Below are positions 2,830-23,613 of a stretch of DNA of 51,248 bases, piece by piece (the stretch's first letter is position 1; each line of letters opens with the position of its first letter). The notes beneath the pieces were generated by a model. The model did no database searches, was not told the DNA's origin, and saw nothing but the letters and a program-made list of their open reading frames with translations. Source of the stretch: a virus (lineage: Duplodnaviria > Caudoviricetes); the IMG/VR virus record IMGVR_UViG_3300048999_000032, positions 1 to 51,248 of that record. The stretch is one strand, 5' to 3'. The position numbers and the translations under genes are program-made.

Positions 2830-3288
2830 TTACTCGGCGTGTCCAGCTGTCAGAGCGAGCGACTCCTCGCGCTCCCTGTACGCCGCGTACAGCGTCTTCC
2901 GTTCCGGCCCCGGCTCAACGATCAGGTACGGCAGCATCACCTCGTCAAGCGTGGCCATCTGCGCCTCGATGATCGCCAACTGAGCAGCAAGCCAGTCCTT
3001 CGCTACGCGCCATGCGGTGCGCTCTGCCTGACCGGGTTCGGCGTAACGCTTCTGGATCCGCCGGGCGCGGACCTGCTTCTCAAGCAGTCGTTGCACTGCG
3101 GTGACGTCGATCGGCAGCGAGAACTCCCGTGGCCCGTGCGGGGTTGCGAGAGTGAACTCAAGCCCGACATGCTGCCCCGCCTCGAACATCACCGTCACGC
3201 GGGCAGCTCCGTGCTTCGAGAGCATCAAACTCATCTCGCCAGCCGTCTTCGACGACGCGACGGTACTGGAGTAGTTCAGGGTGCCCAT
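2830..3288 (-). CDS. Conserved phage hypothetical protein
   Basis: NYSSTV..SKT..E...HGA and QAERTAWRVAKDWLAAQLA...EVMLPY motifs recognised from a widespread phage family. Confidence 0.75.
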   Translation of the reverse strand: MGTLNYSSTVASSKTAGEMSLMLSKHGAARVTVMFEAGQHVGLEFTLATPHGPREFSLPIDVTAVQRLLEKQVRARRIQKRYAEPGQAERTAWRVAKDWLAAQLAIIEAQMATLDEVMLPYLIVEPGPERKTLYAAYREREESLALTAGHAE

Positions 3289-17908: not shown

Positions 17909-18216
17909 GGCTTGCCTCCGATGCGCAGTTGGCGCTCAAGCTCAGCGATCTCCTGCTCACGCTTGGCCAGCTCTTCCTGCAGGCGCTTCGGGTCCAGCTG
18001 GTCGGCGGCATTGAAGAGCCAGACGAACGGCCACCGGAACGGCCAGAACAGGAACGTCATCGCAGCACCCATCTGCACGGCGCTGCGCTGCGTGTTGTCG
18101 TACGACCACGACTTGCGCGCCCGGACCCACAGATTCGGCATGTCCTTGAGCGCCAGGACATAGCCGATCGCGAAGTACGCGGCAACCGACCCGAGAGTGA
18201 TCAACAGTGCGAGCAT
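17905..18216 (-). CDS. Membrane protein with C-terminal coiled coil
   Basis: Two hydrophobic segments; FWPF motif. Confidence 0.7.
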   Translation of the reverse strand: MLALLITLGSVAAYFAIGYVLALKDMPNLWVRARKSWSYDNTQRSAVQMGAAMTFLFWPFRWPFVWLFNAADQLDPKRLQEELAKREQEIAELERQLRIGGKP

Positions 18217-18494
18217 CACGCACCCCGCTTCGGATCGTTGACGACCCTGACGTGAACGCGGATCCCCAGTACTTCCTTGGACCAGACGCCGTTGACGACC
18301 TGCGACCGCATGATCCGGCCACCCACAGCGGCACGCCACGCCAGCACCTCGAAGTCAGTGCCTTCGACCAGCACCCACAGGCGCCCGTTCTCAGTGGCGT
18401 ACTCCCACTTGCCCTGCCAGAGCTGTGGGTGGAGGGCAACCACGTCCTCGATCCACGCCATTGTCGCGGAGTGGCGCTCTTCGGTGGCCATCAC
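18216..18494 (-). CDS. Hypothetical protein
   Basis: Coupled ORF. Confidence 0.6.
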   Translation of the reverse strand: MMATEERHSATMAWIEDVVALHPQLWQGKWEYATENGRLWVLVEGTDFEVLAWRAAVGGRIMRSQVVNGVWSKEVLGIRVHVRVVNDPKRGA

Positions 18495-18706
18495 CGGATC
18501 TCACCGCCAACCGGCACCAGCTGCGCGTACCACGACTTCAGGTGGAGCAGACCCTCATTGCCGGTCGCGCTGAACGCGTACCGCCAGTTCACCGCGCCGC
18601 CCGCAGGCTTCAGTTCCGCCACAACGAACGCGGCACCGTCCGGCTCGAGGATGATCGTCATGCCGACCTCGACATCGGCGCCGGCTACCGCGAACGGCGC
18701 GGTCAC
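18491..18706 (-). CDS. Hypothetical protein
   Basis: Coupled ORF. Confidence 0.6.
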   Translation of the reverse strand: MTAPFAVAGADVEVGMTIILEPDGAAFVVAELKPAGGAVNWRYAFSATGNEGLLHLKSWYAQLVPVGGEIR

Positions 18707-18858
18707 TTCTTGCCTTGCTTCTTCGCACGCTGCCGTGCGACCTCGTCCTTCTTGGCCTTCTGCTCACGCTCGATGTCGACCAGGAACCGGCCCGCCTTCG
18801 TCGCGTGGATCTTGCCCGCGTTCGGCTTCGACTTACCGAAGATCCCCACTGCTAACAT
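18703..18858 (-). CDS. Small basic protein (51 aa)
   Basis: MLAVGIFGKSKPNAGKIHATKAGRFLVDIERE...; AAGGGGAG RBS. Confidence 0.5.
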   Translation of the reverse strand: MLAVGIFGKSKPNAGKIHATKAGRFLVDIEREQKAKKDEVARQRAKKQGKK

Positions 18859-18923
18859 CTCCCTTGTTCGTCGCCCCAGGTCCTGACTCGACGGTTGTGG
18901 CCTGGGGCGTCGGCATGTTCTGA

Positions 18924-19340
18924 CTAGGCGCCCTTCGCGAGCGCGTTGATTGCAGCTGCGAATTCCTTGAGGTGGCTGTACTTCCGTTTGAGCGCGGCAA
19001 TGTCGCGCTCCATGGCCTGCAGCACCAGCGCCCGCGTGAACTCGTCAGCGACGGCATCCACGGTGGGCATGTAGGTGGGCTGAGGGTCGGTGCCGCGGGA
19101 CACCGAGACGAACTCGCGAATGTGCCGCGGTCGCTTCGGGTTGCGGTTGTCCGTGATCTTCACGGACCGGATGAGCCGGCGGGCCTGTTCGCGGCGGTGG
19201 ACTTCGCCTGCGATGGCGTCGTTCCATTCGAACCGGTCATGCAGCGGGTGGTCTTCAGGGCGGGCCAGGTCTACGACCAGCGCAGGCGTTAGTTCCCCGC
19301 GCTGGTCGTAGATGGCCTGAAGGCTGTCACGCAGGCTCAT
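18924..19340 (-). CDS. Array-associated accessory protein (138 aa)
   Basis: GELTPALVVDLARPEDHPLHDRFEWND...QARRLI motif; ATG directly abuts the last GGYNN repeats. Confidence 0.8.
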   Translation of the reverse strand: MSLRDSLQAIYDQRGELTPALVVDLARPEDHPLHDRFEWNDAIAGEVHRREQARRLIRSVKITDNRNPKRPRHIREFVSVSRGTDPQPTYMPTVDAVADEFTRALVLQAMERDIAALKRKYSHLKEFAAAINALAKGA

Positions 19341-19946
19341 GCCACACCTGCCACGAGATGCCGCGCCCAACCGAGCGATGCCGGGCCCAACCCTGCAGTG
19401 CCCTGCCCAACCTGCCGTGCCGAGCCATACCTGGCCCCGACAAGCCCTAACCGGCCCCACCCAGCCACATCGAGCCGTACCATGCCTGCCAGACCGTGCC
19501 GGGACTTACCCCGACATGCCCCGCCTGCCCCGACATACCGCACCGAGCCCCGCCAAGCCTTGACCTGCCTGCCAAGCCGCGCCATACCTGGCGCTGCCAT
19601 GCTCTGCCGATCCCCGCCTGCCGTGCCCTGACTAGCCGGACCGCGCACTGACGAACCGAGCCACACCCCGCCTGCCACGCCGTAACGGACCATGACGAAC
19701 CGAGCCAAGCCAGGCCGCGCGAAGTCGAACCATGCCTGCCTCGCCATGCCATACCGGGGCTTGACATGCCCAGCCCAGCCAAACCAAGCCTGCCTTGCCG
19801 GAACATGCCGTGACCCGACACGCCTATCCCTGCCTGCCGCGCCGCACCTGACCCCACCGCACCCAACCAAGCCCTGCCGATCCGAGCCTGCCGAGCCCCA
19901 CCACGCCTTGCCGAGACAAGCCGTGCCACGACCTTCCACGCCTGCC
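19341..19946 (-). ncRNA. GGY-NN pentamer array: 11 putative guide-RNA units separated by GGCA
   Basis: GGCAGG boundaries spaced 54,54,44,54,64,54,49,44,39,74,64 nt (all 5n+4); 110 pentamers, of which 80 start GGY, 16 GTY, 4 GGA; last two bases variable. The repeat structure is directly visible; the RNA role is inferred. Confidence 0.85.
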
Positions 19947-19950
19947 GTGC

Positions 19951-20574
19951 TCACGACATCACCGTCACGTCGCGGGACGGGTCGATCTTGAAGGTGCCGA
20001 AGTCACCCTTCTTCTCCGGTCGCCACTCCCCGATGCCGCAGCCGAGACCGCCGGCGTCGATCAGGGACAGCACCGACTCACGGGTCAGCGACGACTTCAC
20101 GAACGTGACCTCGAGCTCGGTCGACCACTCCGGGAACTCCGGGCGGTAGCGCAGGTCCGAGCTCCCCATGCCGATGCGGACCACGTCCTCCCGCATGCGC
20201 GGCTCTCCGGTCAGTACGGCGAGCGGCTGCGGGTCAGCGTCGGACAGGACGCCCTTGAAGAACAGGAACTGCCGCAGGTCGGTCATGCGGACGTCCTTGC
20301 CGTAGAACCGGGCCGCCCCGACCGTCGCCGACTTGAAAGCGATCATCGGGAAGCCGTAGCCGTCCTTCGTCCGGTAGAACGCGGCGAGGTACTCGGCTTC
20401 CGGATCACGCGCCACCTTCGGAGACTTCCGGCCCTGCTGCGCGTCGAGCATCTGCTTCTTCGCCTTCTCGCTGAAGCGGTGAACGATGAGCGGCGCAGTG
20501 CCGACGATCGGGACGATGAGCGTCTCGGCGTCGATGCGGGAGATGTTGACCTGTGCGGATGCCGCGGTGACCAT
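19951..20574 (-). CDS. Stand-alone Cas7/RAMP-like protein (207 aa), putative RNA-guided effector
   Basis: RAMP-like motifs: IVPIVGTAPLIVH (beta1), YGFPMIAFKSA (cf. IPGSSLKG), RYRPEF..W, C-terminal Gly loop GGLGCGIGEWRPEKKGDFGTF; AAGGAG RBS. Confidence 0.8.
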   Translation of the reverse strand: MVTAASAQVNISRIDAETLIVPIVGTAPLIVHRFSEKAKKQMLDAQQGRKSPKVARDPEAEYLAAFYRTKDGYGFPMIAFKSATVGAARFYGKDVRMTDLRQFLFFKGVLSDADPQPLAVLTGEPRMREDVVRIGMGSSDLRYRPEFPEWSTELEVTFVKSSLTRESVLSLIDAGGLGCGIGEWRPEKKGDFGTFKIDPSRDVTVMS

Positions 20575-20717
20575 GCGATACTCCTTGTGTGTTGTAAGGG
20601 CTGGTGTCTCTTTCCGGGGATCCAGCCCTTCGGCTTTTCTCTTGTGAAGTGGAGCTCCTGATGGCCGCCGCCAGACCGGACCGGGGGGCAGTCCGCGGCC
20701 GATGGCCATCAGGAGGA

Positions 20718-20912
20718 CTAGGCGACCGTCCGTGTGTTCCGGTCGATGTACTGCTGCAGGTCTGCTTCCGCGACGCGGGACTTCCCGCGGACCTCGACAA
20801 CCGGCAGGTCGCCGTCAGAGATCAGGCGGTACACGGTGTTGCGGCTGACCTTCAGCCGGTCGGCCACCTGCGGGATGGTGAGCACCTCGGCGGGAATTCG
20901 CTCGTCGCTCAC
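20718..20912 (-). CDS. xis: Excisionase / HTH_17 DNA-binding protein
   Basis: LTIPQVADRLKVSRNTVYRLISDGDLPVVEVRGKSRV; start position uncertain. Confidence 0.85.
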   Translation of the reverse strand: MSDERIPAEVLTIPQVADRLKVSRNTVYRLISDGDLPVVEVRGKSRVAEADLQQYIDRNTRTVA

Positions 20913-21061
20913 GCGATCACCAACCAAATCAGTAGGAGCGCGACGACGGCCACGCGGACCATAAGGAGCGGGCAGCCTTTCGGCTTCGGAGACTCCTTCA
21001 TTAACCACATCTGAGCCTCCGTGCATCACGCTGAATCTGAGTGTGTCTTGCTGTGTCAGCG

Positions 21062-21091
21062 ACGGTAGCACCGGGGATTAAGAGTCCGCAA
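21062..21091 (-). promoter_or_regulatory. Putative leftward early promoter
   Basis: TTGCGG-18 nt-TACCGT on the minus strand, upstream of xis. Confidence 0.4.
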
Positions 21092-21220
21092 GGGTTTGGG
21101 TGGGTCAAGCTGTGTCAGAGTGTTCCGAGATGAATCTGGACGTGTCGGCCTGCGCCATGTACCGTGAAGCAGGATGGGACACGGTGCAACACGGTGAGAC
21201 AAGGGGAGGTGAAACAGAGC

Positions 21221-21562
21221 ATGCTTCTCTTCATGATCGATGCGCGCGGGCGGACCCTGATCGGAGAAACCGTCAAGGCGGTCATGGCGTGGGAGGGCTA
21301 CACCGGTGTCGGGATCGACAGCACCGGCAGAGTCAGTCGCGCCACCATCAACCGGGCCAAACGCGGCGACGTCATCTCGGACACCATGCTCCGCGCCCTG
21401 GGGGACGCGCTAGGTCTACCGCGGGACTACCTGCTGTATGTGGGAGCCGGCGACGTCCGCAAGATCCAGGCATCTGGCGCAGACCCCGACCTCATCCGCT
21501 GGACTACGGACCTCATCCAGACCAGTCACCCGCAGGATGACAAAGCTACGCATATCCAATGA
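21221..21562 (+). CDS. Xre-like HTH regulator (candidate repressor)
   Basis: GRVSRATINRAKRG...TMLRALGDALG; divergent from xis; GGAGGT RBS. Confidence 0.7.
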   Translation: MLLFMIDARGRTLIGETVKAVMAWEGYTGVGIDSTGRVSRATINRAKRGDVISDTMLRALGDALGLPRDYLLYVGAGDVRKIQASGADPDLIRWTTDLIQTSHPQDDKATHIQ

Positions 21563-22527: not shown

Positions 22528-23613
22528 GTGGCACACATCCGTAAGTTGGCGTCCGGGAAGTGGCAGGCGACGGTCCGTCACCCGTCGGGTCAGCGCTGGT
22601 CGAAGTCGGACCCGCTGAAACGAGTGGTGAAGGACTGGGCCGACGAAGCAGAAGCGAGGATGCGGCGCGGCGACTTCCTCGATCCGGCCGGCGGGAAGAT
22701 GGTCCTGTCGGACTGGTGGATGAAGTGGTCCACCACGCGCCGGGTCGAGGTGGCGACGAGACGGAAGAACACCTCCCACTGGGGCGTCCATGTGGGACCC
22801 GCCTTCGGTACGTGGCCGCTGGCAACCATCAAGTCCTGGGATGTCGAGCGCTGGGTGTCCGACATGGTGGCCGCGGAAGTTGGGCCCACCACGGTCGCCG
22901 CGTCGCTGAGTCTGTTGACCCACCTTCTGAACGCGGCAGTGAAGCATCAGCTGATCGGGGTCAACCCCGCCGCACTCGTGAAGGCTCCCTCAGTGCCTAA
23001 GCACAAGGACCGCTTCCTCACCCACGAGGAGGCCGACCGGGTGCTCGCGCAACTGGACGGCGTACACCGGCTGTTCGCTCAGGTGCTGCTGGGGACCGGA
23101 CTGCGGTGGGGTGAGGCCGCGGCGCTCGACGGGCGGCATGTGAACTTCCTGCGCAAGACCATCACCGTCGAGCAGGCGTTGGGGCGGGACGGGAAGATCA
23201 AGCCACCGAAGACGGGCGCCGGCTACAGGGATGTTCCGCTGACCGATGAGCTCACCGAGGATCTGTCGCGGCATGTGGTGAACCTTGATAAGCCGGTGTT
23301 CCAGCAGGCGAACGGGGAACGGTTCGACTACTCCAACTGGCGTGCCCGCATCTGGGTCCCGGCAGTGAAGCGGGCAGGCCTCGATGACCCGCAGCCGACG
23401 CCGCATGATTGCCGCCACTCGTACGGCAGTTGGCTGGGCGACGACAGTGTTCCGCCGCAGGACATGGCGGCGCTGCTGGGGCACTCGGACTGGCGGATGG
23501 TGCAGCGGTACGTCCACGCCTCGGCGGCACGGTTCGCGAGAGCAAGGGCTGCGCTAGAAGGCGTACGCTCACACGAAAGCGCCCGACGCAGTGATGAGAC
23601 TGCGCCGGGCTGA
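22528..23613 (+). CDS. int: Tyrosine integrase
   Basis: N-terminal arm-binding domain; GLRWGE, KT, HDCRH, LLGH, RY catalytic residues. Confidence 0.96.
   Translation: MAHIRKLASGKWQATVRHPSGQRWSKSDPLKRVVKDWADEAEARMRRGDFLDPAGGKMVLSDWWMKWSTTRRVEVATRRKNTSHWGVHVGPAFGTWPLATIKSWDVERWVSDMVAAEVGPTTVAASLSLLTHLLNAAVKHQLIGVNPAALVKAPSVPKHKDRFLTHEEADRVLAQLDGVHRLFAQVLLGTGLRWGEAAALDGRHVNFLRKTITVEQALGRDGKIKPPKTGAGYRDVPLTDELTEDLSRHVVNLDKPVFQQANGERFDYSNWRARIWVPAVKRAGLDDPQPTPHDCRHSYGSWLGDDSVPPQDMAALLGHSDWRMVQRYVHASAARFARARAALEGVRSHESARRSDETAPG

Follow-up and report, generated by a model that had tools for sequence, protein, structure and literature searches.

VIPR systems and a locus of this type in a soil actinophage

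Systems of the Viral Interference Programmable Repeat (VIPR) type were described in April 2026 (10.64898/2026.04.26.720920, PMC13142463), and their structures are reported separately (10.64898/2026.04.26.720927). They are the closest described systems to the locus presented here, which occupies positions 18924-20574 of a complete 51-kb virus record of IMG/VR from a soil phage (IMGVR_UViG_3300048999_000032, 51,248 nucleotides; this whole stretch is referred to as the window). The lone RAMP protein Vipr polymerises on RNAs of 9-16 YNNGG repeats, burying the GGY and presenting the NN dinucleotides (10.64898/2026.04.26.720920; 10.64898/2026.04.26.720927). The NN dinucleotides pair with double-stranded DNA, whereby each third base of the target is skipped, usually the wobble base of a codon; VIPR requires no protospacer adjacent motif, targets either strand, and silences the transcription of rival mobile elements (10.64898/2026.04.26.720920). 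The thumb of Vipr breaks the guide-target duplex periodically, and the residues of SUSP1 Vipr that hold GGY are D177-W178-R179 of the G-loop and R138 of the thumb (10.64898/2026.04.26.720927). Some of the accessory vap genes encode winged-helix-like DNA binders, and the legend of fig. S18 describes staggered arrays, in which a vrRNA's end is also where the next one starts, with an overlap of 1 nucleotide (nt); small RNA sequencing confirmed the other two array architectures, not the staggered one (10.64898/2026.04.26.720920). Published natural targets are prophage lysis-lysogeny regulators (P. fulva clade) and a satellite excision recombinase (SUSP1 vrRNA4) (10.64898/2026.10.15.759431), and they have so far been mapped mainly in phages of E. 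coli and Pseudomonas. The system, its code and the logic of reading invariant codon positions are already in print (April-October 2026).

The stretch 18924-20574 of the window is a VIPR locus with a staggered array, and the match of its last full guide unit, unit 11, to the active-site motif of Peptidase_M78 proteins is more than chance. We consider it fairly likely that unit 11 is a guide which silences the M78 regulator gene of another element or of the host. If true, this would add a target class to those described, namely M78 proteases, which flip repressor switches, hit at their active site. The features of the locus and of its surroundings are as follows.

18924-20574, minus strand: VIPR locus overall, in the order vipr, array, vap
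19951..20574, minus strand: vipr, encoding a 207-aa stand-alone RAMP/Cas7-like protein
19341-19946 (606 nt; feature bounds 19339..19946), minus strand: staggered vrRNA array of 11 GGY-NN guide units and a stub
19353..19416, minus strand: unit 11, the last full unit, composed of GGCA and 12 pentamers
18924..19340, minus strand: vap, encoding a 138-aa putative accessory protein, its ATG overlapping the array end
19337..19954, minus strand: open frame of 205 codons over the array, with GTGA and ATGA overlaps with the neighbouring genes; judged not to be a gene
21071-20718, minus strand: Xis-like helix-turn-helix (HTH) gene, divergent from the repressor and integrase genes
21164-21562, plus strand: HTH repressor candidate (annotation of window genes)
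22528-23613, plus strand: tyrosine integrase gene (annotation of window genes)

The phage that carries the array is a temperate soil actinophage, and its VIPR locus lies in the early operon directly downstream of the Xis-like HTH gene. Neither cas1, cas2 or other cas genes nor a repeat-spacer array of clustered regularly interspaced short palindromic repeats (CRISPR) are present in the window, and a hammerhead search over 18000-21500 returned nothing.

The assignment of the 207-aa protein as Vipr is based on several lines of evidence. Its profile matches PDB entry 36pp_D ('SUSP1 Vipr protein') with E=8.6e-14 over residues 20-197, which is the sole solved structure matched, and the single sequence matches the same entry with E=3.5e-9; hhalign against SUSP2 Vipr returns a probability of 98%. 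HMMER alignment with SUSP1 Vipr pairs the G-loop GVGDWRPR with GIGEWRPE and SYRPIF with RYRPEF (the second of each being the window's). Taken from this sequence alignment, not from structure, the GGY-holding D177-W178-R179 of SUSP1 correspond to E-W-R in the window (a D-to-E change), and the thumb residue R138 to R. R144 and R185 are invariant among 51 relatives. The AlphaFold model of the protein (predicted local distance difference test, pLDDT, 94.5) finds its best Foldseek matches in chains of type III Csm/Cmr and type VII effector complexes (E from 6e-6, TM 0.39-0.54). The protein corresponds to phrog_4652 and has no match in Pfam; 3657 representatives are found at E<=1e-3. In the call of the ORF finder, vipr is 45 codons longer upstream (20575-20709) and begins at an ATG at 20709; this start is probably unused, because the relatives measure 203-209 aa and begin at the position of 20574.

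The array shows a self-identity of 0.48 at lag 5 and 0.49 at lag 10, compared to 0.21-0.28 at lags 1-3; no codon (3-nt) periodicity is found in it, and it is the sole region of such pentamer periodicity in the window. Its 112 pentamers have G at position 1 in 94%, G at position 2 in 82%, and C or T at position 3 in 97%; GGY is found in 82 of them and GTY in 16. Each unit consists of GGCA followed by 7-14 GGY-NN pentamers, the lengths of units 1-11 being 54, 54, 44, 54, 64, 54, 49, 44, 39, 74 and 64 nt, and a 14-nt stub then runs into the start codon of vap. The GGCA-GG junctions fit the published overlap of 1 nt, because GGCAG shares its last G with the next GGY. All seven arrays that were read display the identical grammar: those of the window, of the cluster F mycobacteriophages Donkeykong and Quico, of the Gordonia phages UmaThurman, Pipp and Ecliptus (all five with laboratory hosts), and of the cyanophage Cy-LDV1. 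Cy-LDV1 (L004, 2540-3972), which infects a host of low G+C content, contains vipr, array and vap in this order, with GGC-NN pentamers and GGCA junctions; hence, the array grammar is not a by-product of high G+C content. Among the 80 IMG/VR loci encoding Vipr, the array lies on the vipr strand in 76 and on the opposite strand in none. Other explanations of the repeated letters had been considered, namely an RNA bound by a TRAP-like ring (11 GGY in 54 nt), an array of two-tetrad G-quadruplexes, a rut/Rho site, and an origin or centromere iteron array or primase site array; all of them were dropped, since the flanking protein is Vipr.

In comparison with the described systems, the locus resembles the type II VIPR of SUSP1 in having a homologous small stand-alone RAMP protein, GGY-NN guides, a phage-borne location and a small putative accessory gene; its target, too, would be read two bases in three and in codon register. 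The number of pentamers per unit is 7-14 in the window and 9-16 in the SUSP1 preprint. With a single sequence, alignment of the window's Vipr to those of SUSP1 and SUSP2 is limited to the C-terminal 80-90 residues. In contrast to SUSP1, the guides of the window, which are situated between vipr and vap, are contiguous and lack a 3' pseudoknot tail. The window's vap is unrelated in sequence to the vap1 of SUSP, and comparison with SUSP2 vap1 displays no sequence similarity. While SUSP1 is an Escherichia phage, the host of the window phage is probably an actinobacterium of high G+C content. The closest described architecture is that of the staggered vrRNA arrays, with which the window shares units free of spacers and the GGCA-GG junction that fits the 1-nt overlap. 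To the backbones of class 1 CRISPR effectors (Cas7/Csm3/Cmr4) the system is related by the RAMP fold, by one protomer per guide repeat, and by the periodic break of the duplex by the thumb; it differs from them by the lack of a repeat-spacer array and of cas genes in the window, and by a guide-to-target ratio of 5 nt to 3 nt instead of 6:6.

Unit 11 and the active-site motif of Peptidase_M78

Unit 11 was parsed on the minus strand, and the NN dinucleotides at pentamer positions 4-5 were reverse-complemented. On the plus strand they read, 5' to 3', AC AT GC CA GA AT GG CA CT GT CT CA; with one free base added to each, they decode to T[IM]A[HQ][DE][IM]G[HQ]LVL[HQ]. This agrees exactly with the dinucleotides and the motif given in a first-pass annotation of the window, made from the letters of the DNA.

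Searched for in 596 Gb of species-representative genomes, the gapped pattern of unit 11 gave 16 exact matches, compared to an expectation of approximately 0.004 (2 x 5.96e11 positions / 4^24). All 16 fall in the reading frame on RFTIAHEIGHLVL[HQ]: the string is RFTIAHEIGHLVLH in 15, and the remaining one has Q as its last residue. Comparison with Pfam covered the open reading frames (ORFs) of 11 of the 16 matches; each of these is a Peptidase_M78 (PF06114) above the curated cut-off. A tblastn search with the M78 protein of locus L011 returned 23 of the 24 M78 loci. In a sample of 401 Actinomycetota genomes, which includes one genome chosen for holding an exact match, nine hold the unit-11 site at <=3 mismatches, all nine as in-frame variants of the motif, and the reversed pattern is found in none. 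The last ten dinucleotides of unit 11 furthermore match three viral contigs on RFDLAHEIGHLVLH, with 21/24 bases over the whole guide in each; at two of these near matches the ORF encodes a fusion of HTH_3 and M78, and at the third it is truncated where the locus ends.

In silico, these data support what the first-pass annotation had proposed: that the guide pairs with codon positions 1-2 and skips position 3, which is the published 1-nt skip rule of VIPR, and that the decoded string is the active site of an M78 protein. Its expectation of a non-self target is likewise supported, as the 51-kb record contains neither a PF06114 gene nor a self-site of unit 11 at >=79% NN match.

By analogy to SUSP1, the following mechanism may be envisaged. 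The array would be transcribed and cut into guides of approximately 40-75 nt at the GGCA-GG junctions; Vipr protomers would polymerise on the guide, one per pentamer, burying each GGY; and the NN dinucleotides would pair with double-stranded DNA, two bases per three, so that the bound filament would block transcription. The dinucleotides of unit 11 would thereby complement codon positions 1-2 of the zinc-binding motif T-I-A-H-E-I-G-H-L-V-L-H of an M78 subfamily, and since the wobble positions are skipped, synonymous escape would be closed. Since the phage has no M78 gene, unit 11 would silence the M78 regulator gene of another element or of the host; judged from the sequence, the phage probably silences an ImmA/IrrE-type regulator gene in a rival element or in the host. 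Silencing of M78 would stop the protease-driven removal of a repressor, and with it the induction of a rival prophage or the switching on of a defence operon. The repressor-protease switches ImmR/ImmA and CapH/CapP, which share PF06114 and the HExxH string with the predicted target, represent that target and are no relatives of the locus itself.

Like the published targets, that of unit 11 would consist of near-invariant codon positions in a gene on which the rival depends for its exit from the repressed or integrated state; unlike them, the target gene would be a Peptidase_M78 metalloprotease, and the site its catalytic HExxH. Neither an M78/ImmA protease target nor an actinobacteriophage example of VIPR is named in the main texts of 10.64898/2026.04.26.720920 and 10.64898/2026.10.15.759431, the supplements of which may list them.

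Related arrays provide additional support. Among 652 units parsed from 76 viral loci, eight permit a reading as HExxH. Six of the eight share the orientation of unit 11, and A-H-E-L-G-H occurs in four of those six. Three guides match real M78 genes at the site of unit 11, namely those of L034 (21/24 bases), L041 (23/26) and L042 (24/26); their registers and sequences differ from unit 11, and they also contain non-GGY pentamers. A guide of the provirus locus L052 (at 3648) matches a second conserved M78 motif, NAFAASLLMP, with 18/20 bases in four loci (for instance L025, minus strand near 1629). Two more guides, of L039 (AHELGH-like) and L051 (AHELRH-like), were not counted, as they have no match of >=75% in the 24 M78 loci. 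When the arrays of Donkeykong, Quico, UmaThurman, Pipp, Ecliptus and Cy-LDV1 were decoded in search of HExxH-type strings, none was obtained.

Altogether, 520 guides compared with the 24 M78 loci gave 51 matches from 12 guides. Five guides match at least three places, unit 11 doing so by construction; reversed guides gave 14 single matches and shuffled guides eight, and no control guide matched more than one place. These M78 loci cannot test unit 11 itself, because they were chosen with unit 11 at gap 1. When it is left out, 456 guides compared with 27 M78 loci gave 15 matches at gap 1, as against 1, 0 and 0 at gaps 0, 2 and 3; the 1-nt skip rule fits this clade. Four related soil phages with different guides to one M78 site, and a fifth with a guide to a second motif, would be expected from selection rather than from chance. 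On this basis we tentatively suggest, at somewhat less than even chances, that arrays of the actinophage clade repeatedly carry guides against catalytic M78 motifs, by which the derepression of rival prophages or host defence islands would be jammed, and that the guide moves between arrays as a cassette. The provirus that holds L034 contains an M78-like gene of its own (L117, about 1558-1592), in which HAxxH has Ala in place of the catalytic Glu and which matches the provirus's own guide at 17/24 bases.

Contigs of four soil runs of two other studies (X2, X3, X5 and X6), placed on window 18900-20700 at >=85% likeness, cover vap and vipr and hardly 19449-19936. In one X3 contig, about 755 letters lie between vap and vipr, compared to 578 in the window. 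These soil relatives keep vipr and vap at >=85% likeness and differ in the array. The depth of X2 contigs is 111-121 over 19327-19448 and 0-6 over 19449-19570, and loose ends resembling array sequence start before 19360 and behind 19416. As a hint drawn from contigs, this suggests that unit 11 is present in X2 with other neighbours.

Alternative readings and the natural target

Several observations weigh against unit 11 being a guide that silences an M78 regulator gene, or against a rival prophage as the holder of this gene. The skip rule has been shown experimentally solely for type II systems (SUSP1, P. fulva), which belong to another clade than the window's, and none of the sequencing runs listed as holding the stretch is an RNA run. 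The full unit-11 pattern has no exact match in IMG/VR; units 2, 5 and 6 have none there either, the searches made returned no target for any of the other ten units, and no guide of the window matches the window or 86 VIPR loci at >=88% NN match. The 16 exact matches are scattered across many phyla. In the 401 Actinomycetota genomes, 180 contain an M78 gene (about 301 M78 matches in total), compared to the nine genomes with a unit-11 site; unit 11 may therefore be regarded as the guide to a subfamily, not to the whole family. No prophage immunity modules are evident around the annotated exact-match loci of Actinomycetota, and none of the 24 M78 loci contains an integrase like the window's. The composition of unit 11 and the genes next to its matches, which also count on this side, are discussed with the alternatives that they favour.

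As regards the array itself, the open frame of 205 codons (19954..19337) might be a real Gly/Ala/Arg-rich repeat protein, the pentamer period being a by-product. The frame is open throughout and overlaps both neighbouring genes by 4 nt, and GenBank calls such frames genes in Donkeykong (gp48), UmaThurman (gp40) and Pipp (gp43). It nevertheless has no 3-nt periodicity and no Pfam or PHROG match, and an open frame is to be expected from GGY-NN, which nearly excludes stop codons in all frames (TAG being the sole stop able to arise). No gene is annotated over the arrays of Quico, Ecliptus and Cy-LDV1, that of Cy-LDV1 lacks a start codon at its head, and conservation in the array follows the letters of the RNA motif instead of codons; we regard a protein-coding origin as extremely improbable. 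Improbable as well, if not to this degree, is that unit 11, at the end of the array, has decayed or was never in use, its match to M78 being a coincidence aided by a 20-nt repeat. It is the last full unit, and three of its 12 pentamers are not GGY (TGC, CGC, CTC). Tandem Repeats Finder moreover assigns it a 20-nt period, with 3.5 copies and 77% matches (an imperfect triple repeat), which alone yields the spacing H-x3-H-x3-H, so that the three His positions are not fully independent. A coincidence of this kind is opposed by the 16 exact matches, all of them in frame, against an expectation of about 0.004, with none for the reversed pattern; by three other arrays that hit the same M78 site with other sequences and registers, non-GGY pentamers included; and by the X2 depth above 110 over 19327-19448, where the upstream units are uncovered.

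A different question is which M78 gene would be the natural target. The locus and its code may be as described above, with the target being a capP-like M78 regulator of the host or the defence operon it heads. VIPR would then act as counter-defence, either because the defence is kept repressed or because polarity blocks the nuclease genes downstream of M78. The best PADLOC model for the exact-match proteins of L011, L013 and L008 is capP (E 2e-36, 3e-31 and 7e-22), which discriminates poorly, because PADLOC has hardly any M78 models besides capP and RmrA. In L011, the M78 gene lies within a defence island, between an E1-E2/ThiF gene, a PDC-S15 FRG gene and a NsnA/GmrSD-like gene. In five of the 24 loci (L008, L010, L016, L020, L029) it is followed by an SbcD-like (Metallophos) gene, with an SMC/LmuB-like gene next in four. 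Such surroundings of the exact matches suggest that the target may be a regulator of host defence rather than the ImmA of a rival prophage. On the other hand, the near matches on viral contigs are HTH_3 + M78 fusions, as expected of phage regulators, the natural targets published to date are mobile elements, and no genome with unit-11 matches is known as that of the phage's host. We hold a host defence target to be possible, if on the unlikely side, regard it as the principal alternative as to the element concerned, and keep to the broader assumption that unit 11 is directed against an M78 regulator gene of another element or of the host. The data raise the question of whether VIPR is used against mobile elements only, or against regulators of host defence as well. 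The set of M78 peptidase, Metallophos protein and SMC/LmuB-like ATPase, as seen at 3433-7870 of L008 and also in L010, L016, L020 and L029 (metagenome-assembled genomes, MAGs, of Solirubrobacterales and one other actinobacterial genome), may itself be a regulated defence system.

The putative accessory protein and relatives of the locus

The vap product belongs to phrog_15946 and has no Pfam match. Its model (pLDDT 93.6) yields weak Foldseek matches to forkhead, MarR and MecI winged-helix domains (E 0.13-1.6, probability up to 0.94); from the model, a winged-helix DNA-binding fold is probable. Two weak Rfam matches to microRNA families within vap (19261-19319; E 0.022 and 0.35) are far below the gathering threshold and were taken as chance. 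The closest named relatives of both Vipr and vap are found in a Kribbellaceae MAG and in Naumannella halotolerans.

Vipr and the 138-aa protein occur together in 33 phage records, comprising 27 of Mycobacterium phages (a tally in which RefSeq and GenBank copies are counted separately), five of Gordonia phages, and the cyanophage Cy-LDV1. The gene order is array-vipr-vap in the cluster F mycobacteriophages and vipr-array-vap in the window and the Gordonia phages. Actinobacteriophages with laboratory hosts, such as the five named above, would make VIPR testable in Actinobacteria. In GenBank, the array of Donkeykong (L001, 2961-3347) is entered as gp48, that of UmaThurman (L002, 2840-3163) as gp40, and that of Pipp (L005, 2707-2976) as gp43, each as a hypothetical protein; the respective homologues of Vipr and vap are gp49 and gp50, gp39 and gp41, and gp42 and gp44. 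The array of Quico (L003, about 3005-3250) is left blank. In Ecliptus (L006, 776-3213), two HTH genes, vipr, the array, vap and one more gene are located between the tail assembly chaperone and the tape measure gene, an unusual place which suggests that the cassette is a mobile module.

A guide of the related viral contig L043 (at 3112) matches the conserved Vipr motif VLSLIDAGG in frame, with 18-19 of 20 bases, in 11 other VIPR loci. Its sites include L042 2981-3009 and L002 3270-3298, and UmaThurman, Pipp and Ecliptus are among the loci matched. From its sequence, this guide looks like one directed against rival VIPR systems.

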